DNA of 64,000 bases from Antedon mediterranea (GCF_964355755.1 NC_092680.1:310001-374000); one strand, 5' to 3'. Positions 9,701 through 63,689 are shown, counted from the first letter of the stretch. Notes: generated by a model from the letters alone, not told the origin. Program-made: numbers and translations.

Positions 9701-12111
9701 TCAGGCTGAAAAATTATAGTGTTTTCTCCATGGTAATACTAATCTTAGCCAGAGGTGTTTATGGCTATATTTAGACCAATACTTGTACAATAGAATGTAT
9801 AGTGCAAATGTCCTAACCAGAAGACAGACCTAAAGATATGGAGTCTCCAGGGACTTATGTACCATGTAGGCTGTTCAACAGTTTTGTAATTATCAATATC
9901 CAATTGATCACGACATAATCATCCCAATAACAAATGGCGATAAAATCAGATAAGAATAATAATTTTAATATATCTAAATTCTATAAAATTATAGATTCTA
10001 TAGAAATTCTATAAAATTATAGATTCTAAAGAAAATAAGAAACATTTTATAGACACTAAATAAATTCTATAGAAATTAAAATATATTTCAATAGAAGTGT
10101 TCTATACAATATCATAGAGCTCTATTAAATGTTCTATACAATTCTATAGAAATGTTTGTAAGGGTGTGCTCAATGTAAATGAATAACATGGCTCAATTTG
10201 TCCAGTGAAATTAGTGATAAGCAGAAAAATTATAAACATTTACAAGTTATTCTACTTTGAAAATGAGCTTTTTGTTTTATTTCATGTGTATATTTACATA
10301 TGTGCTTGTTTCACAATTGTTATACAATCTTCATGAGAAATAATTTTTGGTATGAGTTTTGGTATGAGTTTTGGTATGAGTTTTGGTATGAGTTTTGGTA
10401 TGAGTTTTTCCTGTCTGTAAACTAAAATAATTATAGTACTAAATATTATCTAATTAATTATTTGTAATGTCTTAGTTTGTAGAACACAATACAATAGTTA
10501 CTATAATTAGACACATTACACAATACAATAGTTACTATAATTAGACACATTACACAATACAATAGTTACTATAATTAGACACATTACACAATACAATAGT
10601 TACTATAATTAGACACATTACACAATACAATAGTTACTATAATTAGACACATGTAGTAATCAGAAGACAAGTACCTTTGTGCTTTCTCTGCTTCCAAATG
10701 TGACAGAGAAGGCGATATGCCATGAATCACACTCTTCTTAGGTCCACCATTTATAACACGTACATTCTATATTATAAAGAAAGAAAGATTAAAAGAACAT
10801 AAAGAAAACAAATTGGCTCTTGCATCTCCCAATAACTAAATAGGCATATCATAGAGATAGTGAATTATAATACTGTATCAGGCCTATCAAAGCTATTGGT
10901 GTAGTGAAGCCAGAGAGGCTACATCTTTAGTCATCTTTTGGTCCAATAATGTACTCTCACTTTTACAGAGCTTATTTTTAAAGGAGCTTTTTACCATTTT
11001 TCCTCCTGGACAATGTTGAGGTTTGAAATACTCAATTTAATTTAGTCCATAAACGTACTCTCACTTTTACAGGGCTTATTTTTAAAAGGGCGTGTTTTCC
11101 ATGTTTCCTCTTGGAGGTTTGAAATACTTAATTTGGTTATCACTTGAGTCCTAGTACTAGTAGTGTCTACTGCTTTGTAATTGTAAACAACAGAAGAAAT
11201 TTGCATGGAAAAAAATAAATTTGTAATTAAATGTCTATGTATTGTACTAGTATGAAGACAATACTATTACTATAGTATGTTGAATCTTCACATTAGACAT
11301 TTTGTAATATAGTGTTGTGTTGTTGAGGTACTGACTTGTAATGAAGACTCTTACTCGCTTAACTGTCGTAACACATATATTGTTTATTCAGTATAATATT
11401 TGATACGTGCGATAATAATGATACAGCTAACTAACTAAGGATAAGGAACGGAGGATCAGTGATGCTGTCGGTGAGATGTGAAGTGTGTAGGTCTGCTTCT
11501 GTAGAAGTGGCTGTAAGGTGTGTGCTCCGTGAGGTGGCTGTAAGGTGTAGATGTTCTTCTGAAGAAGTGGCTGTGAGGTGTGTCTGGGCTCTTCTGAAAC
11601 TTGGGGGTATATTGGCTTCGGTTCATTTGCATATGTTACTACGTCATCTGTGAGGGTAACGATTACTACTACTATTACTACTACTACTACTACTACTATT
11701 ACTACTACTATTACTACCACTACTACTACCACTACCACTACTACTACTACTACTACTACTATTACTACTACCACTACTATTACTACTACTATTACTACTA
11801 CTATTACTACTACTACTACTACTACTACTACCACTACCACTACTACTACCACTACTACCACTACTATTACTACTACTACTACTACTACTACCACTACTAC
11901 TACTACTACTACTACCACCACTACTACTACTACCACTACCACTACTATTACTACTACTACTACTACTACTATTACTACTACTACTACTACTACTACTACC
12001 ACTACCACTACTACTACCACTACTACCACTACTATTACTACTACTACTACTACTACTACTACCACTACTACTACTACTACTACTACCACCACTACTACTA
12101 CTACCACTACC

Positions 12112-12160
<49 letters not shown>

Positions 12161-15100
12161 TTACTATTACTACTACTGTAGTGGTTACTACTACTACTAT
12201 TACTACTATTACTACTATTACTACTACTATTACTACTATTACTACTACTATTACTACTATTACTACTATTACTACTATTACTACTACTACTATTACTACT
12301 ACTATTACTACTACTATTACTACTATTACTACTACCACTACTATTACTACTACTATTACTACTACTACCACTACCACTACTATTACTACTACTACTACTA
12401 CTACTATTACTATTACTACTACTGTAGTGGTTACTACTACTACTATTACTACTATTACTACTATTACTACTATTACTACTACTATTACTACTACTATTAC
12501 TACTATTACTACTATTACTACTATTACTACTACTATAACTACTATTACTACTATTACTACTACTATAACTACTATTACTACTATTACTACTATTACTACT
12601 ATTACTAATACTACTACTACTACTACTACTCAGGGGCGCAGCCAGCAAAGAATTAAAGGGGGGGTCAACCAATATGTGAGTATTTTGCGAGCGAAGCGAG
12701 CAACCATGGGCTGGGGGCCAGGGGGCCGCCAAGGGCCCCCGGTTGGGGTCCAGGGGGGCGAAGCCCCCTGGAAGCTTTGGCGGTCTAGGGCAATCTAGAT
12801 CATTTGAATCGGTTTACGCACACACAAATATGACAATGTTAACACTAATAAACTGAAACAAAGAAAACAAAAAACAACTCTCATTTTCATTACAGAACAT
12901 TTTTATATTCCAGGCTGCCACAGACAAACACTTTTTTTCTTGCTTGTTTGTTGATTTGTTTAGAGAGGCTGTAAACTCAGAGGAGGAATTATTTGAATTC
13001 CTCCCTTTTCACCAATACAAAAGTTGCATGAAATGAACGTAGAGATGCAAAAGTTTGAAAAAAGAAATTAGAATGATAGCATGGAGGGAGTGATATTATT
13101 AAATGAGAACCGTAAGGTTAGAGTTCATACACTGTGCAAGTCCAAGAAGCTATCTTGGCTCCGTGTGTATGTGAGACGCTTATCATACCCAGTACATACA
13201 ATATTTTGTTTAAAAATATACCTATTTTGTTCGAATGTATAGTATAGGTGATAGCTTATACATAATTGTAATAACTAACTTCTAAATTATTATCATACAT
13301 TTTACGTTAGTTACTATAACGGCGCTCTTGACATCGCGTGATGCATCTTTAAACATAAGTTTGGAACATTCTTCTTGGCTTGGAGACAGAATTCGCGAAT
13401 GACATTCTCTGTATTAATGTTCATGTTAAAGTGTATTTTCATGAGGCACAGTCCCGAAAGCTGCTCATAAGACATGTGATTTCCCAAACAGGTTTTCGTT
13501 CTCCATAAAGTCGAAAAACTCCACTCAGCTTCAGCAGACGTTACGGGCATAGGCCTACGCGATTAGAAGAAGTGCACGCACATTCGGGAACACATTTGGA
13601 TCCGCTAATTTTACACAGTCGCTTCCATCACTGAAGCTCGGAATGAAGATGTTCGTGTCTTGGCAGATCATCGTACCAAATTCAAGTTCCTTGAAAACTT
13701 CTTCAACATTACACTTCACTATAGACTCGGGTGCTACGCCAAATATTTTAAAGCATGGCCTGTCATCGGCAGAAAAACGGGTTTTTAACTCGGTTTGTAA
13801 TCAAGAAGTTGATTTGGTAATACTGCTCGGTAGTAATCTTCCACAGTATCTCCAGAATGATTTGATCTGTATTGTTGTCTCATGTTTTTATTTATTTTTT
13901 CTAAAAAAAAGGGGGGTCAGGACCCCCGTGACCCCCCCACTGGCTGCGCCCCTGCTACTGTAGTGGTTACTACTACTACTATTACTACTATTACTACTAT
14001 TACTACTATTACTACTACTATTACTACTATTACTACTATTACTACTATTACTACTACTGTAGTGGTTACTTTGAAATTGATTGTAGAATTGTTACTGAAT
14101 ATTAAAACATTCTGGTTACTAACCGTAATTTGATCATTTTTCAACATTCATTAAAATAAATGTGATGTATAATTTTTTTATTTTATATACAAATAATTGT
14201 AAAACTTTTAAATATTGTATGTATTTTTATTTATTTTTAAAAAATTGTATTTATCTGCACTGTTCTAAAAGTAGAATTCCATCTCTCTATCACTCATGTT
14301 AAATAGGCCAAATTATTTGTGAATCTTCAAAATGCACTAATATGGGTGAATGGATTTTATATTAACATACGCATTACGGATGAAAATGTAACAGTCATCC
14401 AACCCAAAAAAAAATATGAGGATATGTCCTATATCAGAAAGGAATTAATTTTTGGAAAAGAGACAGAATAAATTTCTTCAATTCCAAAACCTCATCATAA
14501 TGATTAAAATTATCAAGAATTTACTGTATATAGGTGGTCGTGTAAACACGGTTTATTAAACCAATTTGATAAATAAATGAGTTTACAATGTACCGTGCAT
14601 GTGGTCTATAGAAAGCAAATAACCCCATCGAAAAAAAATTGAAACTTAACAAAAAGGTTAGCAAAACAAAAGACTATAGCCTATATATGCATAGTCCTTA
14701 ACTTAACAAAAAGGTTAGCCACAAAACACTATAGCCTATATATGCATAGTCTTTAACTTAACAAAAAGGTTAGCCACAAAACACTATAGCCTATATATGC
14801 ATAGTCCTTAACTTAACAAAAAGGTTAGCCACAAAACACTATAGCCTATAATATGCATAGTCCTTAACTTAACAAAAAGGTTAGCCACAAAACACTATAG
14901 CCTATAATATGCATAGTCCTTAACTTAACAAAAAGGTTTAGCCACAAAACACTATAGCCTATAATATGCATAGTCCTTAACTTAACAAAAAGGTTAGCCA
15001 CAAAAGACTATAGCCTATATATGCATAGTCCTTAACTTAACAAAAAGGTTAGCCACAAAACACTATAGCCTATATATGCATAGTCCTTCGTGAGGACTGT

Positions 15101-30362: not shown

Positions 30363-30819
30363 CAAGTATACATTACAAATTGGATCTTTTAAGTACGGAC
30401 GGTACGTCGTACAATCTAAGACAATACATTACTTGCCGGGTTAGTAGTCACTGTCAGTTTTATACAGGCAGTCGTGAACTAAAGTCAGAGAAGTGTGCTA
30501 GAGGACAGACGTTAAGGTAGGTACGTACTTAGTTCTTACTTACATTAACGTAATATAACATTAACAATCAAACACTAAATCTAATGTAACATTAGGGTTA
30601 GGGTAGGGGCGTGTTAGTTGGTTAGGGGAGCAGGGGTCAAAACATAAATATTGACTTGAGTACTTTGGCTTGTCGTCTGTCGCCATTTGCTCCGCTTGCA
30701 AACTTTACGAACAGAGCCTTCCAATTCCAGGGAATAAATAAACAACAGTAATTGTTATGTTTCTTAAACAGAAAAACTGAAAAGCTGATGTCAACAATAA
30801 TAAGAGCAAACATTATGAG

Positions 30820-34782
<3,963 letters not shown>

Positions 34783-39295: not shown

Positions 39296-42200
39296 TTACA
39301 TTTGGTTATTGCCGGCGCTGGCACCACTGAACATTCCAGAAGCCATACCACTTGCAGCTCCTTTAGCTGCTTCCTTGGTTGCGGTTTGAACGCCTGGGTT
39401 GGTCACGACACCTCGGGCGAACTCTTCTTGTGCTTTCTGGAAACTTGCACCGGTACTTCGGTACAAGGAGTGTACCTGTGAATGGTCATTGAAAGAAATG
39501 TTATCAAAATATACTTTATTATTTCACAAAAAATATGATACTAAAAATTTGGTTCATACATTTTTTTTCTGTTTTTTTGCTCATTTTAAAATATAAATAT
39601 TTTTCTGTTAAAAAATGTTTTGTTCATGAGAATACTGCAACAATTTAAGGTAAATTTATTAAAATATCTATTTATCTTTTGCTTACATGCATTAATAGAG
39701 AATACTATTAAATGCACAATGAATTGATACAGTTTATCAATATTAATATACAGTGATATGAATGGTATGTTTTGGTGTTTTGTTATTGGATGAAAATTAA
39801 ACATGATTATAAAAGAAAATATGCAAATAAATTATTATTATAAGATTATTGTAAGCAAATATATGTTATTCAATTATTTAAATAATTGTATATAAAATAA
39901 AATATTGATAATTATATATTACATAATATGTATATATAATGTATTATTATACATTACATAATGTTATTTATAATGTATTATTTAAAATTGTAATTCAACA
40001 GATTATAAACAAAAAAGTAAAATTATTTTAAACATTTTGTTAAATTAAGTTAGAAAATAATGAGTTAAGAAATAAGCTTGTTTTTTGCAAAGCTTTTTAT
40101 CCAAAATATTGAATTAAATTTAAAATTCCACCACCATAAGAAAATTTAAGAAAACAAATCAACATACACATACAAACAAATCAGCACGTTCATAAGTTAT
40201 TTACCCGGGTTGACTTCATGAACGAATCATCGCTAACTTTGCTGGGTAGATCAGCAACTTACCCGGGTAGATCAGCAACTTACCCGGGTAGATCAGCAAC
40301 TTACTCGGGTAGATCACCAACTTACCCGGGTAGATCAGCAACTTACCCGGGTAGATCAGCAACTTACCCAGGTAGATCAGCAACTTACCCGGGTAGATCT
40401 CCAACTTACCCGGGTAGATCTCCAACTTACCCGGGTAGATCTCCAACTTACCCGGGTAGATCATTAACTTACCCGGGTAGATAACCAACTTACCTGGGTA
40501 GATAACCAACTTACCTGGGTAGATCACAGAATTACCTAGGTAGATCTCCAACTTACCCGGGTAGATCTCCAACTTACCCGGGTAGATCACCAACTTACCC
40601 GGGTAAATAACTAAGCATGAACGTGCCCATAGTACAGAGCACACATTATTTACAATACACAATCTGTAATTACACTGTATAAACACACATACAAATTACA
40701 AATACTATCACTACAGATCTCAGACACTAAACTGTTCTTACATTAAATACTCACTTCGTTCAATTTAAAAAAAAATCTAATAACAAGCAATTGCATTTTT
40801 ATTGCGATATTATTTTTATATTTTCCTAATTATTCATTTATTTATGAATTTTGTGGCAGAAGAAAATTATATTATATTTTGAATTTTAAATTGATTTATT
40901 TTGTTGTTATTTTTATTTATTATTTAATCAATCAATTTATTAAAAATTCGCATTAATTTGAATTCATTTAAATACAAACTTGTATCAATATTTATTTTTG
41001 TTGAAATGTTTAAGTTTAATTTCAAATTTTAAATAAGAGAATTAACTATATATCATCTGTATATACCAATTTGTTTTAGGATATTTAACTAGTTGTTGGA
41101 GACTTTCACTTTACCAATGCAATCTTTTGGTCATTTCCATACCTTTTTTAGAAATAATAGATTTAATGTAGCTAGTACAGTGAACAGGATTGCAACTATC
41201 ATCATGATTAAACCAGTGGATATGCGTTGAGCGTTGGACATGTCACCATCGGTGAACACTTCAATGGACACGATCCAACCGCTAATGACATTATACAGTG
41301 ACAGTACACACAATGAGTAGAAGATGAAGGGATGGAGGTAGTGAATATATGAAAAGAAAGCAGTAACATTAATAAAAGCAAAACGAAACAAAAAAGTGTT
41401 ACTAAAATGTTGTCATGATAACATATGATTTTTCTTGCTTTAAAAGCTCTTTTAAACTAAAATGTTTGACAAAACTAATAAATGTTATTTTATGTTATAT
41501 ACAGTTAACTCTTTTGTCCACCATATACAGCAGATTCTATAAGATGATGCTAAACTGAATATTATAAATTTTGGGAAAACGTGGAACGTTTTACAATTTT
41601 TTAAGTAGTTTATATCAGCTTCTGCTTTTACAGATTTTTTCGAGAGAAAGTGTTTAAGGTGATGTCATGAATAATATTGCCACACTACTACTTTTAAAAT
41701 TTAAAAAATTAGATGTTACCATGATCAACACTACTATAATACCTTTGTGCAATATTAAGCAAACTAAAAGAACTATATACAACTGTTAGAAGTTGTTAAA
41801 TAACATATTATTGGGACTGGGTTGCGTTTATACCTTCTTGATGAATAAAAGATTTAATGTAGCCAATGCGCTGAACAGTATAGCGACTGTCATCATGATA
41901 AAACCAACTGACAGACGTGAGCCTTTGCTAGATTCACTGTCCGTTAAAACTTTGATTGTTACTATCCAGCCACTAATATACATGATAAAAATTGTAAAAA
42001 AAAAACATTAAATATATTGGGTGTTTTAATTTTAAATTAAAAAAACAAACAAACAATAATGTATAGAAAAATTCATTTGATTTTGTTATCATGATGACCA
42101 AACCTGAAAATATGAAACGTAAATATTTTGGAACATAGCGTTTCATACGTATACTTGAGCTTGTTAACATCTATTAAAGTAAAGGTTCTCAAGTAATAGC

Positions 42201-45200
42201 CGATATAGAGACATAACGCTGTAAACATGGCGGCACAACAGATTGTTTTGCTTCTAATCAAATTCATCTTTCATTAAATAACAGACAATTTATGAATGAA
42301 AGTTAACAAATTTCTGAAATATAGTCAACTTGTCAAAAAAATTAATTAACAAAGCAAAAAAAAAATTTATTTGGTTTCTGTAAATCCCATTATATTCAGT
42401 TGGCAATGTATTTAAGCTAGGCTAAAAAAATGCAAGTTTAAACAACAAGATACAGTACAACAAAGTTTAGAAAAAACCATTGTACTTTTATTTACCCGTG
42501 TCTTAAATTATTATCATTTGACCTTAATACTAAGTTTTTTAAATAAATATTTTTAAGCATTAGTAGGTCCTTTCCTTTGCTGCTTAATTTTACTAACTGT
42601 AATATGTCATAACTGGATTTATAACTGCAGTTATGACAATTTTATAACATAATTGCCTTTAATATGCGTTGTTAAAGAGCAGCACGCACGCAAAACCTGA
42701 TTAATATTTTTCAGATGATTTCAAAATTAGTAAACATTCACCTACATGTAAAGTAATTTTTATTTTATTTTTTTATTAGCAAAAGAAAATAAGAGTGTTT
42801 TATTAAATACCTTCCTAATATAAAATAGTTTTAATATGGATAATGCAGTGAATAAAATGGCTACACACATCATCCACAAACCAACAAACGTTTGTCCACC
42901 TGATGAACTATTTGTCAACACATTCAGAGCTACAAACCAGCCACTGTCAAAGTTCAAAAACATTTTTTTAATAAAAATAACAAAATACTAAATTAATATA
43001 AAACTAAATGGAGGAATGACATTTGTAAAACCTAATTAAATCATTATTATTATTATTCTACTTCTTGAGGGCATGGTTCATAGATTATACAATTTATGGA
43101 GAGGGGTAGTCAATGCATTTTCTACTTTTTGAGTTATATCTCGCTCTCTGAGAGAGGCTACTGTTGGTTTATCCAGGTAAGCTAGACACAAAATAGTCAA
43201 TATTATTGGTTGAAAGATCATCACATGACCAAGTGTAGATTTATTAATTTCAAAGTTGGGCGCGTTGGACTAAATAGTGAATTTAGACTAGAATAGGAAA
43301 AGTATATTTATATAATAACAGTTCATCTAGTGATAAGAAAATGACCGATAAAAAATGAAAGCCAAAAAAATAAATAAATTATGGTAATACAGTTAAAGTC
43401 CAGAAAAATAAAAGATGATTGAAGTCAGCAAACTTCACTATGTTAACCTATATTTTCTTTGTGTAATTGTCTTATTTATGTATTGTCCTGTCATTGTCAT
43501 GTTTATATTGTCATTGTTCGTTTTATATGTATAAGTTTATTGCCTTAAAAACGCATTTTGAATTTTTCTCTCAATTTTTTGCATTATTTTATCTATTTAT
43601 CTCACCTTATATTCTTATGCAATTTGGAAATATATTGAAATGAACTATTTGGTATGTACACAGTTAAATTATATGAAACTCTGTGCTAGACGATGATTTA
43701 TTTTGACCTATAGATGATTTATTTTGTAAGAGGATTTATAAAAAAAATGTACTGAACATTAACGGATCGAATGAATGTTTAATACTCGCAGAAAATGCTT
43801 TATGAAATGTGTATGTTCAATTGTAAAAAGGAAAAAAATGAATATTTTATGGTGACTTAACAAAGGGCAACATCGACAGATAATGGTATGCATGGTTGCA
43901 CAATTAGAAGAAAATGCTTGTGTATATGTTGATAATTAGCTGGTGTTTGCTGTATTTGGAACAAAAGCTGACACTATGATGATAAACACTGATGGTTTAT
44001 TAAGATGACTTAGATCACCTTTTTGAGATACATAGCATCCAGTGTAGCCAGCAAGGACCAAACACCACCCATAAATAACATCAAACCGCCAACAACTTTT
44101 GCTCCAACACCGTCTTCTTTTACTACACGAATACCATTGATAAACCCGCTGCCAGAGTTAGAATATTGTATCAAAATATATTTGCATGATTCAATAAACA
44201 TAAAGGTAAAAGCACTATTGAGCGTTCAATAGTGCGTACTATTGCAAGCCATGTGACCAACAATAATCTAATTAAATGTCAGGAATTTATATAGGTGTTA
44301 TATAAAAGGTAATGTTGTATAAAAATATAAAAGATATTTGCATGATTCAAGATAACACCATCAATGCGATAAACTACTTGTTTTTTACCAGAACCAGTGT
44401 CACTGAGACTTAATTAAGTCTCTGGTGAAATTCATAAGAGATTTTGTAGGTACTAAATAATAATTGTTTGACACAAGAAAATGATGATACTGTAGGACCA
44501 ACAATTTGAAATGTTTGACAATAAAAAAAATAAATATAAAAAGGTCTAAATATTTGAGAGAAAATAATCAATGAAAAAATCAGAAATTTAGTAAGAATAC
44601 TTATGAGGAGCTACTGTGTGGAAAAAATGTAGTAAAATATATTTGACTCTGTAATAAAGTAAAAATATTAGGATACTTTAAATGCATAAGATATTTCAAA
44701 TACATATACCGTATTTATTTGAATAAACCCCCCGGGTTTCATTGGCTATTTGAAGGGGGAGTTTATTGCAAACGATGTTCTATGAAGGGCATTTTTTCGA
44801 GGAAAGTGTTTTTTTCAAATAAATACAGTATATAAACATTAACATTAACAACATGAAATAAAGATGTCATCACATATTTTATCAACAAACTAGACATTGC
44901 TGAATGAAATGTATCAATGTTGATATGGAACAACGCTGTGAATTCTCTGGAGTTGTATCAAAGAACTTATAACACAAGAATCTCCTGTTCTTCAATTTGC
45001 ATTCAAAACACAGTATCGGAAGTACAGGGTTAAAAGGTCAAACTGGGCGACGCCATTTCACAGCATGGAGCAGCGCCCCCTCCAAACTAGGAAGTTAATT
45101 ACTCTACCCCCCTAGAGTATTAGCAGATCCCCTCTATGATTTTGACTTTCTAATTTGATGCGGGCGCCCTACTCCTCAGTCAATTACTCTATCCCCCCTA

Positions 45201-48200
45201 GAGCATTAGCAGATCCCCTCTATGATTTTGACTTTCTAATTTGATGCGGGCGCCCTACTCCATGGCTCACAATGGCGGCACCCATAGCTCTATTCTATCC
45301 CACAATGCCTTTCGAAATTGTTACGCGCTTCGGACGAACAGGAGATTCTTGTGTTATAAGTTCTTTGGTTGTATGTAGATATTGCTTTATAATATTTAAA
45401 TAGTAAGCCTGTTGATTGGTCAAATATAAGCAATAAATAAACAAATCACTAAAACTTGTCATAAAATGATTTGACACATTACTATGTATCAGAAGTAAAA
45501 TGAGATACGTACCACGTGCCCCAACCATCTAATCCAATGGCCTGTACAACATTAGCACAAAATTGGCAGAAAAATACAAAGAAAAACATAAAGAAATTGA
45601 ACGAACTGTCACTCCTATAGAAAAAAAAAGACAAAATAAACATTAGAAATAAAAACCAACCATTAATAATAAATATATTAATATTAATAATACATACATA
45701 TATTACATTAATTAAATATTTTTCTATAACTTATCAAACTAGCATGAAACTTCTATCCAACTAAATTTAAAGTAAATATTTTTAAAAGTTGAAAGCATGG
45801 TAATTTGTTTTTTTTTAAATGTTCTTAGGCTAAATGTGGTAAAATTATGTAGAAATTTAAGTCTAATTCCGATTTTAAAACATGAATAAGTTTTCTCTAC
45901 ATTGGAATTAAAGTCTTAATATTGATTAAGATTCAAGTAATTGTATTGGTACACTTTAAAATGGAAATTCGGTCTGCTTTGCATAATTAAGACAATAAAA
46001 CAACAAAGAAAAATACATCAAATTGCAAAAGGCAAAGTTCATTTGTTGAACTTATGTCCTTTTTTAAGTTTAAAAAAAATATAATTTGTATAGCGCCTTT
46101 CCAAATTGATCAAGGTGCTTCACATTCTAATGCATAGGAAACAAGCAAGTTTTAAGGCCTTTCTTAAATAGATCTATCGATTTTAGTTCCCTTAATTCTA
46201 TTGACAGAGGGTTCCAGAAACTTGCTCTAAATTTGGAGAAAGCAATGTCCCCTGAGACACGCCTTTCAAGGTGGTCCTCTAACCTGGTTGGATCATTTTC
46301 CGACCTGAGACCACGCCTCCCACAATTATAGAGGTTAATCCTAAAGATAACCTGGTGCTCGGTTCAATTATTAAATCCAATAACACCGCCAACTTTTTTC
46401 TTTTTATTTTCTTAAGAAGATCATATGCATTTCAAAGTATAGTATTTTGATTCACTAATTTATGATGCAAGCTAATTTTAATCTTAAATTTTTAAAAGTA
46501 TTATTTTTATTTTATGAGAAAAATATTAATTTGGATGAAAATGATGAAATGATGCTTTACCTGAAGGCCTTGTACATAGGTCGATACCAACAAACGAATG
46601 AGCATGGACTGAACGCTACAAACCAGACTATTGCAAGACCAAATGTTGTCGCTTTACCTCCATCTGTTTTTGAAAATAGGTACGCCATGGCGCCGATCAA
46701 ATTCAAGAATAGGACTAATACATAAACTGAAATGAAATTCACGATATGAAATGCATTTAAAAATGGTATTATAAGCAAATGTGAATGGTATCACAATTAT
46801 GACGCGAAAAACTATGATAAAAAATGGTAGATGGCTTGATGAAGAAAGAAACAAACCATGACGTGTCGCTGCCTGCTCACCTAAAAGCTTTATACAAAGG
46901 CCTAAACCAACACACATAAGAACATGGATTAAAAAGTACACAGAAAAATACAGCCAGGCCAAAACATCGTCCACTATGACTGACTCCTGTACTGATGTAA
47001 CCAATAGATATCAGCACATTTATAAATAACAACACACCATAACCTGAAAGACGTCAATCATTTTATAATATACATACTTTATTTATTTATTAAGGTGAAA
47101 TCTACAAATTTTTCCCAACAGCCAGGTGCGGATCCAAGTGGAGCCCAGTCGGCCAGAGCCCCCCTAAATTTCACAAATTGTAATGCAAAGATAGGAAATC
47201 AAGCTCAGCCCTTCATTTCACCATTTTAGGCCCTGGGCCCCTCCTATTTCAAAATTCTGGATCCACCACTGACAGCAGAAATGAATCCTGCTAGAGAAGA
47301 GCAATACTAGAAATTCTAAAAATTAAATTAGTACCTGATTCAGAACGGCAGCACAAACAAACAATGAAAACAATGGCAAACGTGTTTGGGCTTTCTTTCA
47401 ATTAAATTTGCTAGACTGGATAGCTACCTAATAATTATTCATGAGGCTTTTTAATTTGCTTGTGGAATTCCTAAACACGTTCAAGTATAGGCTGTTTTCT
47501 AAACATGTTTTTGCCGTTGGGAATAATTTGTAGATCATGTCTAAATGAGAAAATGTTAAAGAATTTATTTACGTACCATTAGTGGCTAATTATTATTATA
47601 ACACACCTGATCACATGATATTCAATAAATATTCTATTGAACTCTAAATTACGTCAGAGTGCAATGTAACTACTTATATGTGACTACTGCAATTTTGTTT
47701 TGTGCATTCATTTTTGATATACCACATATGCAACATAAGGTTGGTGTTGACTGTAGTAGTGTTGTCGATGATATCGGAGGCCTGTATTTTCGAATAAGTA
47801 AATATATAATTCACGCAATTCATGAAATTATTTGTACCATTGCACTCATAAACATTTATTATTATGAGCTAGACCATATTGAATGTTTTAAACATTAAAT
47901 GTAACTTACACATCCACAAATAATATCCAGTTTTCACTGTACGCTGAAAGTCCAAAGGAATGTCTACTGAAAAATCTTGATAAAAGCAAGGCTGGATGTG
48001 TAACCATGACGGCAAAGGAGGCCAGTTGTTTTGTCGTGCTAAAAAATAAAGTATTTAATTAAGTATTATTATGAATGAAGGATGAGGTCTACAAGGAGTC
48101 AAAGAAAGATGTTCCTCCTCAATAACAACTCTTTTAAAGTAGTTGATTCTTTCATGTACACAAATGTTTAGAGATAAGGCAAAGATTTATTAATATCAAG

Positions 48201-51200
48201 AAATAATGCATAACAGGCCAGATGAGCAATGTGTGTCCAGTGGCAATATTCAACATTCAAGCGAAACATTTCTCCTAAATAAAAACGTATAAATAAACCT
48301 TGAATAATACAAAAAGAGATTTAGACTCAAACGTAAAACTAATACCATAAGATTAGCAGAGAATGTTAAATTCTCCTATCACGCTAAATGAGACTGTATA
48401 GTTTTAATGGTTCTAACTTACTATTATATTGAGCATTATTAATTTGTTGTTCTCTTCTTTGTAGTTCGGCTGCTTTGCGTTCTAATTCTTCTTGTCGTCG
48501 TATTAAGTCTTCATGTCCAGCTTGCACTGCCTATACAGTAGGGCAAACAAATAAAACACAAATTACATGGGTCAGACCAGGTCATATTTAGTGGGATGCC
48601 AAAGGTAAATAAAACACAAATTACATGGGTGAGACCAGGTCATACTTAGTGGGATGCCAAAGGTAAATAATCTATTCCTTTTTGTCCTATTCTTTACATG
48701 TACATTCTCAGCCAGGGAATGTGTATTAAGCTCTGCCTACACTATCAAACTAGTTTGACAAAAAAGTGTGATGTGCCCAAATATAGTAGTGATATGATAT
48801 CATCATGTCATATATGGGTACATCACATTTTGTTGTCACATAAATTTTGACTGTAAACAAAGCTTTACATTACAGATATTATTTGACACGCAAGAAATTA
48901 GAGTGAACAATATAGAAGCAACTTACTGGTTGTGCAGCTGATTGTGTGTAAGCAGGTGGTGGTCCTGTGGGTGGTAACACTGCAGGTTGGGGTTCAGACT
49001 TTGTAGGAGGTGCTGTCTGTCTATATGGTTGCTGTACATTAAAAAACAAAAAAGGAAAGTAAATCATTTAAATTATCTCATCATCTTATATTGTAGCTAG
49101 GGAAGTCAATGAAACATGCTTAAGCACAATGAAACATGCTTAAGCACAATGAAACATGCTTAAGCACAATGAAACATGCTTAAGCACAATGACTTCAATG
49201 GAAGGGCAACCTGCCTCCTTTGCTATGTAAATTATCTTTACTTTACTAATTTGCTGATTCACGAAGCAATCAAGACACAATTATTAAATAAACACATTGG
49301 TTTTCTTGAATCGTAACATTTCTTTAAAGATATGGATTCTTATGTCTTATACTGTACAGTAGGATAAATTTAACAAATGACCTCTCCTTTTAAATCTTAT
49401 TAAATGTAGATTACAAATATTAATACACAAATATTTTTTTATATGTTTTTTTTGGCTTTATTTGTGACGCAGAGCCTTATGTGTAGTGTTGTGAAGTCAA
49501 AAACAAAAATGCATAGGGTTTTAGCATTTGTACAATATAAGGAATACAAAATTATATACAGTACTGTACAGTATTTTTTAATTTTTTTTATTTTATTTTG
49601 ATATTTTGTATATGTTTTTCATATTTTTCTAATAATAATAATAATAATATGTGCACATACAGATTGTTTATTTGAATCTTCAAAAGGGTTATATTCTTCA
49701 AGACCTCTATGGCTGTTACTAGTTGCTTGTTGAACTGACTGATCCTGCAAGACAAATATAATCAGCAAGTTTAAAAATAATGCTTCCTGTTTCCTTACAC
49801 AAGTGTAGTGTACATTATGTTGAAGAGGATCCAGGAATTATGAATGAAGGATGTGGTAAAAACAATATATTTGTGCGAGAGGCACCACCTTCCCCAACCC
49901 CTGCTGGATCCGTTCCTGTGGATTGATGTTCATCTAGACCACCATGCTTATTTGTGCGAGGGGCACCACCTTCCCCAACCTTTGCTGGATCCGTTCCTGT
50001 TGATTGATGTTCATCTAGACCAGCATGCTTATTTGTGCAGTACACAGTACATAGCATTTTTTTACTTTTTATTCATGTATACAAAAAATTAATTTAAATA
50101 CAATGTATATTTGGCATCTGAAAAAACTGTAAATTGCACTTTAAACTGTAAAGACGACAGACTGACTGTAATGCATAGATACAGGATAAGAAACATTATA
50201 TACATCTGCATCAGATATGATTCAGAGTGCTTAAATTGTAAGGGTTATCCGTCGCCGTTATTACGTTGCTGACGACGGATGAAAGCTGTTCATCGGCTTT
50301 TATCAAACCTCTTGGGATGTAAACATAATGAAGATAGTTTGCCGGAAAATGAATTAGCTACTTTTTTACAAATGTCATGCTAGTATTATATTTTAACACA
50401 TTGAGGCATGTTAAACATAACTGTATACAATTATTGTGTAAATACTGTACTGTGTACTACAGTACAGTTGGATTAGAAGATGTTGTGACATCTTTAGTGC
50501 ATAGGAAAATCTACCCAATGAGTTCAATAAAACAAGAACCAAAAAGCTCACAAATTTTGTATAATAAATCGTAAAAAAAATTTTAAATTTTGATTTTTTT
50601 ATTCTTTCTTTAGCCTCTCTGGATTATTAAGTGTTTCTTCAAATAAGCATGCGTTTATATTATATATATTGATAAGAAAGCACATACCATTGAACAGCCA
50701 GTACAGTGAAATCCACAATTAGAATGCTATAAGCCTTTTAGATAATACTTAACAGATACATATGCAACACACGGTCCTGCATCTATACTATTAAAAGTGT
50801 CACTAATGTAAAGAACGAATCCTGAATCATTGACGCTTTTCCAAAATACTGTTTAGCCTAATAATCTCATTGGCTTTTAATTCTGAACTTTACCTCCTAT
50901 TTGATTAACTCCCACACCATATGGCTGTTGTATGGCTATGATAACAGCCGGAAAACCTATTCAATTTTGTAACAGAAAAACAAATACTTCATGTGTATAG
51001 TAAACATATAGCATCAAGTTATCACCCAAAAGTTTGATTTTGAGTTAATATGAGTGTGACTGTTTTTTGTATTGGTTTGGTGATAGAGGAGCACTTGTGA
51101 GTCCATGGAGACTTTACAACTAAGGTATGAGTAAATATCAAATTGCAATATTCCATTGTGAATGATGGGTACATGTACTCATAGAATGCCATAGTGAACA

Positions 51201-57200: not shown

Positions 57201-59307
57201 TGCAACTTCTGCTTTATTCAATTAAATCATTCATTTACTTCCTGGTAATAGTTTTATCTAACTAAAATAATCACTGTCTAATTCAATGAATAACCACCTA
57301 AAAGTGTAGGAGGTGGTTAGAAACTACATGAGATTTTAACTTTAAAATTGGATTTTATTTTACCCTCAGCTAGCAGAACACATTAACTCCTTCCTTATTA
57401 ATATTATACACACTCATAATAAAGACTACCAGAGGAATACGCTAAAGGCAAATTTACACAGACGAGTGGTAACGGTATCCATAGCTAGTCCCACGTACAA
57501 TCTGTATCTGTCCTGAGCAAAACCACCCGTCCGCTTCATGTTGTGTGTAAATGGTCATAACATAGATTCTATATTTTTACTATTGTTACGGCTCGTATGT
57601 GTAAATTGGTCATTCTTCATTATACTATCAATTACATACTCAGAAATGATATTTCATCCAAACATCTTACTGTTACAGAAAGAAAATACTGCAAATTTTC
57701 CTACAAGCTTTTCTAGTTGCTCGAGTAGTTCCAAATTACAGCCAATGCAAAGCGTTGGTGATGACAACACCACATGGAAAATCACCTCCGTCCAATAGTA
57801 AACAAGTAACTACTGTACAGTACCTGCCTCAACCCAAATGTTTTAAATTATTTTTTCCGTTATCAAATCTGGCTTATTAAGTATTTTATTAAAGGCAGTT
57901 TATACAGTATTTTTGTTCTATAAACTGCATTATTTTATTTGGTTTTGCGTTAACCTCATGCGAAGAGAGAAGATCAGCTACTGTATTATTTTATTTGGTT
58001 TTGCGTTAACCTCATGCGAAGAGAGAAGATCAGCTACTGTATTATTTTATTTGGTTTTGCGTTAACCTCATGCGAAGAGAGAAGATCAGCTACTGTATTA
58101 TTTTATTTGGTTTTGCGTTAACCTCATGCGAAGAGAAAAGATCAGCTACTGTATTATTTTATTTGGTTTTGCGTTAACCTCATGCGAAGAGAAAAGATCA
58201 GCTACTGTATTATTTTATTTGGTTTTGCGTTAACCTCATGCGAAGAGAAAAGATCAGCTACTGTATTATTTTATTTGGTTTTGCGTTAACCTCATGCGAA
58301 GAGAAAAGATCAGCTACTGTATTATTTTATTTGGTTTTGCGTTAACCTCATGCGAAGAGAAAAGATCAGCTACTGTATTATTATTTCCACCGAAAATATC
58401 TGTGTTTACCATTATTTTTAAAGGGAAATTGATATTATAATGTTAACATTATACCATTGAGGTACTTTAAAACAAATTTTTTTGTCGTCAACAGCTGGTA
58501 CAAATGCACAAAATGGACACATATCGAAGAATGATATCACTACAGTAGCTTAAATTCTTATTGTTAGATGTTAACAAATCAGTTAAATGCTAAAAAAGGT
58601 TTTATAAAAGGATACTTACGAAAGATATTAATGAGAAAAAAACACAATAGCACACTGTTTTAAATACATTTTTTATTTTTTCAGATTTACAATTTTTAAC
58701 ATTTAGAAAAAAATATTGATGACAGAAATAACCAGTCCTGGGCATACATATGTACACATTATTCAATAAAATAATTTTAATACATAACAGAACATAATAT
58801 ATTATTTATATTCTATGCAGCATGCAATTCAAAACATTAAACAATCATTCAAAAGGGTTTCGAGGAGCCACTAACTGACTAAAGAGAGCTAAACCGATTA
58901 TGCAATATTGGTAATCAAACTAATTTTTAAGTTGAGAAACATAGTTTTGTATTGTATTTTTTGCTACACAATTTTCAAAATGTGTAGCAATAAGGTTGTT
59001 TTGTATAGCTCTTTTCTATGCTACACTGGTGAAAATGTTCCCTGACTGAACTGTCATAAACAATCGTAATACAGTAACCACTGTTTATCAATCAGGATGC
59101 CGTTCATCACAGAAACACGTATGTGAGTGAGTGGGTAGGCATGCCTGCGAACCTAACCTAGCTAGCTAGCTACACACAGACTCAGTCAGTACATACAGTA
59201 GGCCTAGGAAATTGGCATGATTAAACCATCAAATAAAACCAATACTTTACCTGAAACGGATTAGATTCTTGTGGGTCAGCAAATGGATTACTATCAAAGT
59301 CAGCCAT
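39296..59307 (-). CDS. SCAMP1: Secretory carrier-associated membrane protein (SCAMP1-like, NPF-containing); exons 59307-59251, 49744-49661, 49031-48927, 48530-48422, 48038-47910, [47043-46881 or 46726-46561], 45614-45513, [44148-44019 or 42943-42811 or 41972-41834 or 41281-41143], 39475-39296
   Basis: [96 protein letters not shown]; all junctions GT/AG and phase-consistent. Confidence 0.95.
40235..40606. repeat. 21-bp satellite, about 18 copies, palindromic TACCCGGGTA core
   Basis: Unit aacttacccgggtagatcagc; explains ORFs 40216..40686 and 40218..40484. Confidence 0.95.
41143..41281 (-). CDS. SCAMP1: SCAMP alternative exon 8d (139 nt): [46 protein letters not shown]
   Basis: Acceptor cattag, donor AAG/gtatgg, phase 2 to 0, open frame. 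Confidence 0.88.
41834..41972 (-). CDS. SCAMP1: SCAMP alternative exon 8c (139 nt): [46 protein letters not shown]
   Basis: Acceptor tattag, donor AAG/gtataa, phase 2 to 0; absent from the supplied ORF track. Confidence 0.87.
42811..42943 (-). CDS. SCAMP1: SCAMP alternative exon 8b (133 nt): [44 protein letters not shown]
   Basis: Acceptor ttgacag, donor AAG/gtattt, phase 2 to 0. Confidence 0.87.
44019..44148 (-). CDS. SCAMP1: SCAMP alternative exon 8a (130 nt): [43 protein letters not shown]
   Basis: Acceptor ctggcag, donor AAG/gtgatc, phase 2 to 0. Confidence 0.87.
44707..44830. mobile_element. Tc1/mariner (pogo-like) MITE
   Basis: taccgtatttatttgaa / ttcaaataaatacagta with TA ends; relatives near 6450-6573 and 8560-8640. 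Confidence 0.7.
44959..45367. mobile_element. 409-bp non-autonomous TIR element, P/Galileo-like
   Basis: Perfect 32-bp TIR caaagaacttataacacaagaatctcctgttc; exact 7-bp TSD GTTGTAT; CA..TG ends; internal tandem duplication. Confidence 0.85.
46083..46345 (-). mobile_element. L2/CR1-type LINE 3' end fragment
   Basis: Minus frame [35 protein letters not shown] followed by an aggcgctatacaaat tail. Confidence 0.75.
46561..46726 (-). CDS. SCAMP1: SCAMP alternative exon 6b (166 nt): [55 protein letters not shown]
   Basis: Acceptor catttcag, donor AG/gtaaag, phase 1 to 2. Confidence 0.92.
46881..47043 (-). CDS. SCAMP1: SCAMP alternative exon 6a (163 nt): [54 protein letters not shown]
   Basis: Acceptor tctttcag, donor AG/gtgagc, phase 1 to 2; the supplied ORF track shows the wrong frame. 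Confidence 0.9.
47123..47271. mobile_element. hAT-like MITE with 5-bp TSD
   Basis: TIR caggtgcggatcca / tggatccaccactg; ACAGC on both flanks. Confidence 0.75.
49107..49192. repeat. 20-bp repeat x4
   Basis: Unit caatgaaacatgcttaagca. Confidence 0.9.
49868..50039. repeat. ~81-bp direct duplication containing a MITE-like end
   Basis: tatttgtgcgag..ctggatccgttcctg..catgc occurs twice. Confidence 0.8.
53132..53330. repeat. 68-bp tandem repeat x3
   Basis: Unit begins tgtaaagaagagcatagctaacaacc. Confidence 0.92.
53396..53598 (+). CDS. Candidate plus-strand exon antisense within SCAMP intron 1, possibly an upstream AP3B exon
   Basis: Acceptor tttaatacag, donor AAG/gtaatt, open coding-like frame ..[43 protein letters not shown]; in frame with the AP3B acceptor at 59778. 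Confidence 0.5.
53638..53884. mobile_element. pogo/Tigger-like MITE
   Basis: taccatatatcctcgggtacaatc / gattatatcagaggatatacacggta. Confidence 0.65.
54469..56184. mobile_element. 1.7-kb non-autonomous TIR element with 5-bp TSD (hAT-like)
   Basis: Perfect 15-bp TIR ctacgctcgcgctaa / ttagcgcgagcgtag; CTACC on both flanks; subterminal ttcgccaa..tggcgaa palindromes; CpG-rich interior. Confidence 0.82.
56650..56912. repeat. 80-bp tandem repeat x3
   Basis: acagtacaataacaaggag at 56671, 56751, 56831. Confidence 0.9.
57924..58382. repeat. 56-bp minisatellite x8
   Basis: Unit actgtattattttatttggttttgcgttaacctcatgcgaagag(a/g)aagatcagct. Confidence 0.95.
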
Positions 59308-59789: not shown

Positions 59790-62700
59790 ATGACGTCCAG
59801 TAGTAGTATGGTGTCTTACGCCAACGAACGTCCACATCACTTGGTGGGCGGTAACAGTAGTGGCGGTGGTGGTGGTGGAGGTTCGACAGGTGATGCGGAT
59901 GAGGCTAGCGATCCAGCTCGTGGAGGCTTCTTTGCAGCAGATTATAAAAAGTATAATAATATCACCATGATCGATTGTATTTTGTTACCTTGGATATTTA
60001 ATTTTATGTTGATTAATTTTCATAATTTATATTAATAATACTAAACTAAATAATTAATATTTTGTTATTAATAAATAAAAGATCAGTCAGAATAAAGAAT
60101 GAGAACGCATCATTAATTATTCATCATGTTTCGTCCCAATTTAGGCCAATAACAAATTCTTGTTTATGGGGTTGGGTGCGTGGGTTGGGATGCATTGTCA
60201 TAATAGGAAATGTAAAGCCATCAGCAACCACCTCAAACTTGATATGTATATGTGTAATTAACCGTAAAAATAAGGCATTAGAGACGCATGATAATGATTG
60301 CAATATTTATTTTTTTTAGCCAGTTTTTTTTTTCTATAAAAAGATCTCAATTAATATCAAATTTAGTAATTCTATTTTATTGTAAGATGTTTTCTTATAT
60401 CACATATTTTTTGTTTTTGTTCAGTAATGTTGGTTTTGGACCAATAAAACAAAATAAATAACAATATTATGTTTTTCTAATTGTTAGTTTAATTGTTATT
60501 TTTAGACATGAAGATCTTAAGTCAATGCTTGATAGTAACAAAGATGGGTTAAAGCTGGAAGCAATGAAACGTATCATTGGAGTAAGTACTAACAAAACGT
60601 TAGTTATACTGCATGTTTGCTTTCATCATTCCTCATATTATTTTTTTATTGAGTAATAATAATTAATTTGAACATACTTTTGTAACAGTGGCACACTTCG
60701 ATATGAAGGTTCATTGTACAATCAAAACCACATTACAATGCTAACTATAAAATGTACAACAATAATAATAAAAATGTAATAATAATAATGAAAACCAAAC
60801 AGTACCCCCCCCCCCCCCGATATTTATCGATATTTACCCACCCCCTCCCTCCCAGTATTGTTTGAGATAGAGTGGTCAATTAGGTCAAAAGTCATGTATG
60901 AATGGCTTTACACTCTACCAGCTATTCAAGTATCAACTTATTCCACCATATCAAAATAATAATATAATAATGTATAATAACAAAGGTTGGTGAGGGTGAC
61001 CATCACTACTACTGTAGGATTTTATCAGAAAATATTGAGCCATTTTTATTACATAATAATATTGTTTAAAGGTTTGCATAGTGAATAAACACTATCAATG
61101 AAGTATAAGAAATAGTTAAATTGTATTCTTTACATTAAAATAACAAATTGACAAGTCCTTTTCAAATGATACAGACACTCAGCATTGTGTCATCAGTATT
61201 GTATGCTAAAACACCCTAACTCTATCAGTGTGAACAGGGCTTTAATGCTATTATACTAATTGAATAGTAGGGCCTTTACCCTTAAGCTAGAAGATTATGT
61301 GACAAAAAAGTGTGATGTGCCCATATGGTAGTGATGTGCCCAAGTTTGTTTAGTGATATGACACTATCATGTCCATATATGGGCATATAATCTTTTTGTC
61401 AAATGATCTTGATAGTGTAGACAGAGCTTAATACCAATTGAAGAGTATATTGTTAGATATAATCAATATCTTTCAGATAATGTACAGAGCTATTCAATTA
61501 CATGGTTGATTGAATCTGTGCAGATGTAGGTTTACATACACTGAGTTGCACTGTGAATAGAATTAAAACTACTTTGATTTAATTTATAATAATACTGTAT
61601 TGGATTGTTCCACAGTGTAATAGTAGCAGTAACCTCATTAGCATAAACTGCCAGGTTAATTAGCATAATCCATAGCTTTAATTTAACACTAAACTTGCTT
61701 TTTGCCTTTAATTATAATGATAACATTAATCTATATTATTTTTTGCACTGAAGCTCTGCAATATTTTGTGACTGTTTTATTTGTCATTTTGATTTAGCTT
61801 TTTGCTTATTTTATTTGTATTTTCATTGAGATCCAGCCACTGATATATTAACATTAAATCATAACATCAATTGTTGGGTTTTTTTCAGATGATTGCTAAA
61901 GGCAAAGATGCATCTGATTTATTCGCTGCAGTTGTAAAAAATGTTGTCTCTAAAAATATTGAGGTAAAAGTAACCATAATAATAAATTTGTGTTTTTCAT
62001 ACTGTAAAGGCAAAAATGTTCGCACCTCCGTCATTTTCCTTATGCGTATGTAGAATGTAAAAATAATTTGATCTTTATTTAATCTTTTTTCAGATTAAAA
62101 AGTTGGTTTATGTTTATCTTGTACGTTATGCTGAAGAACAGCAGGACCTTGCTCTGCTATCAATTAGTACATTCCAAAAAGCACTCAAGGTAATTCGATC
62201 ATTTTTCTACCAAATATAAAGTTAAAACCTCCTGATAAGCATGTTTTCTTGTGACAATTATCCTTAGCAATAGGTCTAAAATAGAATAATAATGAAAATT
62301 AATGTAAGTGAGAAAATAACCTGCAATTGCTCACAGGTGTGGACGACAATCAGGATAATAACTATAAAATTTTAGGCGCTATCGTGCGGACAAACAAAGA
62401 AAGTACTTGTTTGTAATATTAATTGCTATCCACAATACAATACATTATGATTTGAAATTACCAAAATCATACAGAAACTAAATAATTATAACTGTATACT
62501 TTCTGTGTATATACAGGATCCAAACCAGTTTATTCGAGCATCAGCTCTACGAGTTTTGTCTTCGATTCGAGTAACCATCATCATTCCAATCATGATGCTT
62601 GCGTTAAAAGACAGCGTGACAGACATGTCGCCATATGTGAGAAAGACGGCCGCGCATGCCATCCCGAAAATGTACAGCCTGGATCCAGAACAAAGAGATC

Positions 62701-63689
62701 AACTCATAGAAGTTATTGAAAAACTACTCTCAGATAAAACAACAGTAAGCATTTTTTCTTAATTTTTTATTTACTATACAAATAAATAATACTAAACTTG
62801 ATCTGCATATATATTTCAAGAACTCATTTATTTTTGTAGTGATTATGTTTTATTTTAAAAAAATATATAATGTTGATATGTATAATCAAATAAATACCCC
62901 CTAGAACAAATATAAAACAATTAATATCAAGAAGTTCAATTTTTGGAATTAATGAGGATCGTAGTGTTAAATCAATTAATCATAAATATTTCACCTCTCT
63001 GACACAATTGTTTACTTTTATCAGTTGGTAGCTGGAAGTGTTGTGATGGCTTTTGAAGAGGTTTGTCCTGAAAGAATCGACCTAGTTCACAAGAATTTTC
63101 GCAAACTCTGCAATTTGTTGATCGATGTGGAAGAGTGGGGACAGATTTCAATCATCAATATGTTGACACGTTATGCCCGCACCCAATTTCTAGATCCAAA
63201 CAAAGCTGTAAGTATGGGTTTTTTTTATTAATAATTAGTAAACACATTTTTTAGCTAATTTTCTTTTTTATGATGAAAATTTTTTTTTTTTTTTTTATTA
63301 AACAAATTTGTACAAATATCATAGTAGTTTTGCAGAAAGATGAAATAAGCAAGTTACCTCACTACTGAGCTACCATGTCACTACTACATGTTTGATCCAA
63401 AACATGACTGGGGTAATAATGTGCAGCGCATTGAGAGCTTGGTTATATACGCTATATAAGAATGGACTATTATTATTATTATTAGTAATACATTTTTCCT
63501 AACTCCAACCTCTTTAAGGATTACATTCAAGAAGAAAATGAAAAATCATTTTATGGATCTGAAGATGATGAAAAAAAGGAGGATGAAGGCGAAGAAGAAG
63601 GAGAAAAGAAAATACCATATGTAATGGATGCTGATCATAGACTGTTGCTAAGGAGTGCCAAGCCATTGCTACAAAGCAGAAACTCAGCT
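59790..63689 (+). CDS. AP3B: AP-3 complex subunit beta, 5' part; exons 59790-59950, 60506-60581, 61889-61963, 62094-62189, 62517-62744, 63025-63207, 63519-63689; continues beyond the window
   Basis: [107 protein letters not shown]; phases consistent. Confidence 0.96.

Follow-up and report, generated by a model that had tools for sequence, protein, structure and literature searches.

A tandem, probably mutually exclusive exon pair in a crinoid SCAMP gene, and its likely convergent resemblance to vertebrate SCAMP4/5

The SCAMP gene on the minus strand of a 64-kb window of Antedon mediterranea (the window being the whole stretch of DNA analysed, 64,000 nucleotides) carries two tandem-duplicated copies, 6a and 6b, of the exon that encodes the end of TM1, the lumenal loop, TM2 and the E peptide. 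Each transcript likely takes up just one of the two, their duplication likely preceded the split of crinoids from the other echinoderms, and the two residues by which 6a matches vertebrate SCAMP4/5 are likely convergent; we put the probability of this combined reading at roughly 0.72. What the gene contains is a real, old and probably mutually exclusive exon pair, the 6a half of which is unannotated, alongside a second cluster of the same kind.

Exon 6b is identical to part of RefSeq SCAMP1-like isoform X1, and the remaining exons of that isoform also map within the window (Table 1). The product has the hallmarks of its family (PF04144): a domain scoring 220 bits, four long predicted helices, an E peptide between TM2 and TM3, and an NPF-bearing N-terminus with three NPF motifs, reduced to one when the alternative first exon is used. 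No SCAMP was found in the PDB sequence set; in the AlphaFold model of isoform X1 (mean pLDDT 78) the helices are predicted at residues 147-178, 184-218, 221-243 and 267-304, and exon 6 (residues 163-217) would span the end of the first, a short loop, and the second through the E peptide. The Antedon gene models probably miss two exons, 6a and 8a.

Table 1. Exons of the Antedon SCAMP gene, in window coordinates
Feature	Position	Strand	Remark
Coding exon 1 (start codon, two NPF)	59251..59307	-	100% to isoform X1 residues 1-19
Alternative first coding exon, 7 codons	52622..52642	-	equals residues 1-7 of isoform X4
Exon 2 (third NPF)	49661..49744	-	
Exon 3 (proline-rich)	48927..49031	-	splice joint in run X1
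Exon 4 (long helix, predicted)	48422..48530	-	
Exon 5 (SCAMP domain start, first part of TM1)	47910..48038	-	joint to 6b, contig depth 64.9
Exon 6a (TM1 end, lumenal loop, TM2, E peptide; Y..F)	46881..47043	-	absent from 4/4 RefSeq isoforms
GT-AG intron between 6a and 6b, 154 nt	46727..46880	-	
Exon 6b (F..Y type)	46561..46726	-	spliced 5-6b-7
Exon 7 (TM3), one copy in the Antedon gene	45513..45614	-	
Exon 8a (TM4, non-Trp class)	44019..44148	-	absent from 4/4 RefSeq isoforms
Exon 8b (TM4 variant)	42811..42943	-	isoform X3
Exon 8c (TM4 variant)	41834..41972	-	isoform X2
Exon 8d (TM4 variant)	41143..41281	-	isoforms X1, X4; linked to exon 7 by a contig of run X1
Exon 9, coding part and stop codon	39296..39475	-	

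A sequence-only reading of this DNA had proposed that the pair mirrors the vertebrate division between SCAMP4/5 and SCAMP1-3, splicing supplying what vertebrates obtain from paralogues. Its description of the gene was accurate: the exons lie on the minus strand where it placed them, they are rightly numbered as exon 6 (five coding exons precede them), the intron between them has the length it gave, and they end in Y-V-C-W-F (6a; Tyr codon 46918-46916, Phe codon 46906-46904) and F-V-C-W-Y (6b; Phe codon 46598-46596, Tyr codon 46586-46584), signatures written below as Y..F and F..Y. Both exons, 6a with 163 nt (AG/GTGAGC) and 6b with 166 nt (AG/GTAAAG), are entered in phase 1 and left in phase 2, the length modulo 3 being 1 in each. 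They are 44% identical in protein (24/54) and 55% in DNA and match the same stretch of the Pfam SCAMP profile with 45.0 and 59.9 bits, respectively (cut-off 27), and their likeness is not due to chance: tblastn between them returns an E value of 5e-14, and an HMM finds exactly two exon-6 copies in the window. Either exon alone keeps the frame, and 5+6a+7+8a+9 stays open through to the natural stop, whereas joining 5+6a+6b+7 leads to a stop at codon 120 of 186 and joining 5 to 7 without exon 6 to one at codon 42 of 122. These are adjacent homologous exons for one protein region, with shared phases and a frame that breaks with both or neither, and transcripts exist in which 6b is included and 6a skipped (contigs of run X1; RefSeq isoforms X1-X4), as in a cassette of the mutually exclusive type.

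What, then, keeps the two exons from being joined? A close branch point finds no support in the sequence of the 6a/6b intron, whose pyrimidine run (nt 21-50) is followed by AG at positions 45 and 68. Scans for inverted repeats and for 11-mer pairing yielded no candidate docking/selector pair and no convincing long pairing, and the longest match (44959-44993 with 45333-45367) sits in a high-copy repeat; this element in SCAMP intron 7 (44959-45367; a 35-nt inverted repeat at 97% with arms 339 nt apart) is probably a small non-autonomous transposon. The likely safeguard is the frameshift itself together with decay of mis-spliced RNA, by analogy with the human clusters, 60% of which have exons whose length is not a multiple of three according to the accessible text of PMC5740500; mis-spliced products of the Antedon gene would then be cleared by nonsense-mediated decay.

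In run X1, whose kind was guessed as RNA and which also contains unspliced contigs, contigs join exon 5 to 6b (depth 64.9), 6b to 7 (depth 83.1) and 7 to 8d, so that 6a is skipped in the main form, and 6b is present in 4/4 Antedon and 2/2 Anneissia RefSeq isoforms retrieved. Exon 6a itself occurs in that run only in one unspliced 500-nt contig at depth 9.5 (intron-spanning contigs have 7-12). No spliced 6a joint is among those listed for the run, a listing that covers 12 of 32 loose ends and rests on contigs, which drop rare forms and cannot show absence, and the search of sequencing runs has no RNA run among the matches listed. Could 6a be a silent or nearly silent relic, its Y..F state having drifted once selection was released? 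Its absence from all four annotated isoforms, the spliced contig that passes over it and its long end branch (0.66 against a median of 0.17 in the 72-row tree described below) would suit such a fate, but the frame is open and the splice sites canonical, all 16 columns with conservation of at least 80% across 70 other rows are retained even though third positions are saturated (6a/6b identity by codon position 1, 2 and 3: 0.62, 0.66 and 0.38), random sequence with the base composition of introns yields an open frame of 53 codons in just 1.2% of draws, and starfish and urchins have annotated isoforms that contain exons of the 6a class. A relic seems to us quite improbable. Exon 6a looks maintained, with long-term conservation at the protein level, and presumably is used as a spliced exon, perhaps in a minor form restricted by tissue or stage.

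Comparable exon pairs occur well beyond crinoids, although those of other species were read from isoform proteins and not from their DNA. Annotated proteins differ over exactly the exon-6 segment in Patiria, Acanthaster, Asterias, Strongylocentrotus, Lytechinus and Apostichopus, and exon-6 variants are annotated also in Branchiostoma (three variants) and in three lamprey genera, where a SCAMP1-like gene has two alternative exon-6 segments (proteins P0046/P0197, P0190/P0191 and P0193/P0195) and thereby provides a vertebrate case. The variants in these RefSeq isoform sets swap the same segment as in Antedon but, unlike theirs, the Antedon 6a is in no annotated isoform seen. Retrieved isoforms show a single exon 6 in Saccoglossus, Glandiceps, Diadema, Lineus, Tubulanus, scallops, Crassostrea virginica, Haliotis and Patella, as do those of Mytilus (15 of 22 listed). 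In DNA, the metagenome locus L004 (546-3638) bears five tandem, intact exon-6 copies with shared phases and splice sites, in the order F..Y, Y..F, Y..F, Y..F, F..Y, the final two of which recur, followed by exon 7, in another locus (L003:609-1520).

How old is the crinoid pair? An exon-6 tree of 72 rows and 54 columns puts 6a with its top library match and the starfish and urchin exons that share a Cys-Phe-Gly mark (97/73), although no starred branch places it. AU tests were run on 39 rows and 53 columns, 33 of the 72 rows having been dropped (near-duplicates, long branches and most library-only rows), and on a 47-row set that adds the exons of L004 and L008. The sequence-only reading had named the grouping of 6a and 6b as a lineage-specific pair as a result that would speak against it, and no best tree joins the two. 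That they nonetheless are crinoid-specific duplicates unrelated to the other echinoderm pairs, exon 6 having been duplicated separately in each lineage, is very unlikely in our view. Separate duplication does occur in this gene: exons 8b-d group with an Anneissia exon (99/98), the two lamprey exon-6 copies fall among vertebrate exons, and the five copies of L004 cluster together with two library rows; a tree joining 6a and 6b moreover has a p-AU of 0.23 in the 47-row set. The same tree, however, falls to 0.03-0.06 in the 39-row set and to 0.029 there without the signature columns, and each Antedon exon shares a mark with a different class of exons elsewhere, Cys-Phe-Gly linking 6a to starfish and urchin exons and Thr-Phe-Gly linking 6b to the other starfish class. 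A duplication that preceded the separation of crinoids from other echinoderms is the reading we retain.

Does 6a share more than its signature with SCAMP4/5? The SCAMP4/5-like labels were given in this analysis, no named SCAMP4/5 record having been retrieved, from a shared exon-6 motif and from a missing NPF N-terminus in the longer records, which we take to mark SCAMP4/5. So labelled, 29 of 150 library matches are SCAMP4/5-like, one of which the Atlas puts in chordate SCAMP clusters. The split that the earlier reading had described does exist in the vertebrate rows used, where SCAMP4/5-like rows are Y..F in 8/8 cases and SCAMP1-3 or cyclostome rows F..Y in 14/16 and F..F in 2/16; among the 150 library matches, Y..F is found in 29/29 SCAMP4/5-like ones plus 11 others, with four lacking a parsable motif. 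The trait of Tyr and Phe around the E-peptide Cys-Trp is present in 6a, as it is in 13/235 non-SCAMP4/5 segments, and the absence of an NPF N-terminus, another SCAMP4/5 trait, does not apply to the Antedon gene. Outside the signature the picture is echinoderm. When 1.84 billion representatives are searched with 6a, an F..Y exon that bears the Cys-Phe-Gly mark comes out on top (58%) and SCAMP4/5-like rows start at rank 45 of 150, and Cys before Phe-Gly, as in 6a, characterizes 11/19 other echinoderm rows and 0/24 vertebrate rows. A word-index search with 6a produced no candidate for a separate SCAMP4/5 gene, which is weak evidence; the search bearing on a second crinoid SCAMP gene covered the best 120 of 1793 matches.

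These letters bear directly on the possibility that the resemblance is inherited, i.e. that the deuterostome ancestor had both a Y..F and an F..Y exon 6, of which, once the gene had been duplicated, SCAMP4/5 retained the former and SCAMP1-3 the latter. Exon-6 variants in echinoderms, amphioxus and lampreys mean that an alternative exon could predate the split of the vertebrate genes, and such a process has precedents, 11 cases being described in the accessible part of PMC4494069 under the name of splice isoform separation. Yet 6a lacks the Thr, Cys and Trp of TM1 and the Trp of TM2 that SCAMP4/5-like rows (8/8 for each) share with 14, 11, 12 and 16, respectively, of the 16 other vertebrate rows; with Asn before Phe-Gly added, all five marks are present in 8/8 SCAMP4/5-like rows and none in 6a, and the TM1 Trp is found in 0/19 echinoderm rows. 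Over TM1-TM2 it is 6b (39%) that is closer to SCAMP4/5, not 6a (30%). The starfish and urchin exons of the 6a class are not Y..F, both lamprey copies are F..Y, and the amphioxus copies are never Y..F. Shared ancestry is therefore disfavoured, because beyond the two signature columns 6a has echinoderm letters and SCAMP4/5 vertebrate ones.

The trees point the same way, within the limits set by 54 columns, which are few, and by the long branch that SCAMP4/5 forms in exon trees. In the 72-row tree SCAMP4/5 (100/99) is nested in the vertebrate group (87/93). Exon orthology of the paralogues is absent from every best tree, the corresponding constraints being 15-24 log-units worse, with p-AU of 0.008-0.29 depending on row set and columns. 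With all columns of the 39-row set, the tree joining 6a to SCAMP4/5 is 15-19 log-units worse but escapes rejection (p-AU 0.25-0.29 across four models, and 0.39 in a quick run that had converged poorly); the paired version has a p-AU of 0.046-0.14. The two largest supports for the link between 6a and SCAMP4/5 are columns 42 and 46, i.e. the signature; without them both trees are rejected, at a p-AU of 0.030 for that link and 0.008 for the paired version. In the 47-row set the link is 18-20 log-units worse yet escapes rejection (p-AU 0.11-0.12), even without the signature (0.12), and a clade of all Y..F exons has 0.28 with the signature columns and is rejected at 0.011 without. One 47-row search set SCAMP4/5 beside a Y..F library exon (90/79), and a tree 6 log-units better returned it to the vertebrates; a tree of the flanking exons (41 rows, 110 columns) left SCAMP4/5 unplaced, drawn to long library rows. 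On human 15q24, SCAMP2 and SCAMP5 are close neighbours, an arrangement that would agree with SCAMP4/5 having arisen by local gene duplication. Ancestry of the link is disfavoured in every row set, if short of firm exclusion, and we regard the separation of ancestral splice forms into paralogues as most improbable. Were it true, splice forms would have turned into paralogues deep in the deuterostomes, and the SCAMP4/5 split could be dated thereby, but the data do not favour it.

The resemblance is most likely a convergence at two labile positions. Both signature changes are single-base Phe/Tyr swaps, and the 72-row tree needs at least six changes for Y..F and at least 11 for W-F/W-Y, rising to 10 and 21, respectively, on 260 rows; W-F is found even in an NPF-bearing lamprey SCAMP and in a SCAMP2-like row. 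Across ten exon-6 clusters the signature is uniform in all copies in six (W-Y in three starfish genera, Lytechinus and lampreys; Y..F in Apostichopus), differs at one position in two (Strongylocentrotus and Branchiostoma) and is fully swapped between Y..F and F..Y in two, Antedon, the sole echinoderm cluster seen to do so, and L004, whose discovery is biased because it was found with the Y..F pattern.

Is the lability itself constrained? Among 259 distinct segments, 184 are F..Y, 37 Y..F and 36 F..F, with two others and not a single Y..Y. The avoidance of two tyrosines is pronounced in a Fisher test (p 5e-10 over 235 non-SCAMP4/5 segments), although starred branches hold just two independent pairs and the sign test was blank. 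The absence of Y..Y is to be expected if the two positions have a single hydroxyl between them on a common helix face, a condition under which the functional idea of the earlier reading stays alive: in the AlphaFold model the signature residues of isoform X1, 205 and 209, are four apart on helix 184-218 and would accordingly face the same way. One might extend this to a gene that acts as a cassette across bilaterians, with exons 6, 7 and 8 repeatedly duplicated, lampreys included, and with a two-state Phe/Tyr toggle reached three times, in the crinoid pair, in L004 and in SCAMP4/5, which would set the fit of the E peptide in its PI(4,5)P2 interface. We hold this extension to be rather unlikely; if it were true, the exon pair of a single crinoid gene would be a naturally matched set with which to test it.

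What is known of the E peptide shifts attention elsewhere. As far as the accessible text of PMC7906166 goes, that of SCAMP2 starts at Cys-Trp and binds PI(4,5)P2, an Arg mutant being noted, and the accessible parts of PMC8721997 and PMC10316736 assign cargo regulation to its Cys and Trp. Exons 6a and 6b do not differ in the residues so named (Cys, Trp, Arg), and the upstream signature position lies two residues ahead of the E peptide, whereas about two thirds of the residues on the TM1-TM2 membrane and lumenal face differ. Because the functional residues of the E peptide are the same, the main functional difference likelier concerns the TM1-loop-TM2 surface: the choice between 6a and 6b would alter that face and perhaps the selection of cargo or partners, leaving the Cys-Trp-x-Arg core unchanged in either form. 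The motif resemblance described in the sequence-only reading is real, and its proposal of ancestry is disfavoured by trees and by letters outside the signature. The idea that splicing supplies what paralogues supply is weak, because most clusters elsewhere carry one signature in all copies, the E-peptide Cys, Trp and Arg do not differ, and exon 6 leaves NPF loss unaffected. The pair lends itself to testing whether it matters which of Tyr and Phe occupies the positions around the E peptide.

The second cluster, which the sequence-only reading overlooked along with the alternative first exon, concerns exon 8, which encodes a lumenal helix and TM4 and is present as four tandem copies, 8a-8d (window 44148-41143, minus strand), leading from phase 2 to phase 0 with a length modulo 3 of 1; 8b, 8c and 8d are each used in at least one RefSeq isoform. 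Judged by their grouping with the Anneissia exon, 8b-d look crinoid-specific, whereas 8a, found in run X1 with two synonymous differences, belongs to an older non-Trp class and joins the non-Trp exons of brittle star and starfish (89/80). The non-Trp exon 8 of amphioxus, urchin and sea cucumber forms a starred group (98/95); the exons of the class are not one clade across phyla and require at least four changes, so that they do not demonstrate a single bilaterian origin. All vertebrate exon-8 rows (12/12, SCAMP4/5 included) are of the Trp class, so that the TM4 cluster was not divided among the vertebrate paralogues either. Alternative copies of exon 7 (TM3) are seen in hemichordates, oysters and mussels (P0021/P0165, P0018/P0152, P0043/P0228 and P0120/P0201), and two tandem copies in each of three loci (L020, L021 and L023) which we take to be nematode-like. 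The alternative first exon, for its part, drops two of the three NPF motifs and has a counterpart start in Anneissia isoform X1, and Asterias, Acanthaster, Lineus and lamprey have annotated isoforms without any NPF. Since SCAMP4/5 are defined by the loss of NPF repeats (accessible text of PMC7906166 and PMC4235465), NPF loss by an alternative first exon is nearer to their defining trait than exon 6 is. Two forms of exon 6, four of TM4 and two first exons would allow up to 16 forms from one locus.

How does this gene compare with known systems? It shares with mutually exclusive tandem exons, as the accessible texts describe them (Hatje et al. 2017, PMC5740500; Abascal et al. 2015, PMC4494069), adjacent homologous exons of similar length, common phases, a common structural region, age and conservation, and differs from them in having two clusters within one four-helix membrane core; SCAMP has no match in the main text of either paper. 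The cases of splice isoform separation given in the accessible part of PMC4494069 (CALU, FYN and MARVELD3, the last also a four-helix membrane protein) follow the pattern that the earlier reading had proposed, but that process requires each alternative exon to be orthologous to one paralogue, for which the Antedon trees offer no support. The vertebrate comparison has two sides: 6a has the SCAMP4/5-type Tyr/Phe around Cys-Trp and 6b the SCAMP1-3 type, whereas SCAMP4/5 are separate genes that lack the NPF N-terminus and are vertebrate-like in the rest of exon 6, and three NPF motifs are encoded by the Antedon gene. In the full-text literature covered, from which most subscription journals are absent, we found no work on alternative exons of SCAMP or on how SCAMP4/5 arose. 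The exon switch spans the functional core of a trafficking protein that is itself conserved, and it is widespread in deuterostomes; one-gene invertebrates appear to vary the SCAMP membrane core by splicing, and jawed vertebrates use five genes.

Upstream, the SCAMP gene stands head to head with a gene for AP-3 beta (59792-63228, plus strand), the start codons being about 485 nt apart, and it thereby resembles human SCAMP1, which forms one block with AP3B1 at 5q14.1 in the portion of PMC8319724 available. Elsewhere in the window, a plus-strand gene at 30781-34779 encodes repeated C2HC zinc fingers (PF13913; six stretches in a frame of 512 aa), with further zinc-finger exons near 34105-34779, and a long minus-strand exon at 18869-17895 belongs to a gene of the sodium/calcium exchanger family (PF01699). 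The last SCAMP intron contains a 21-nt tandem repeat with palindromic units (40237-40606), and long degenerate trinucleotide arrays at 11600-12600 and 13900-14100 give rise to spurious poly-Thr, poly-Ser and poly-Val frames.
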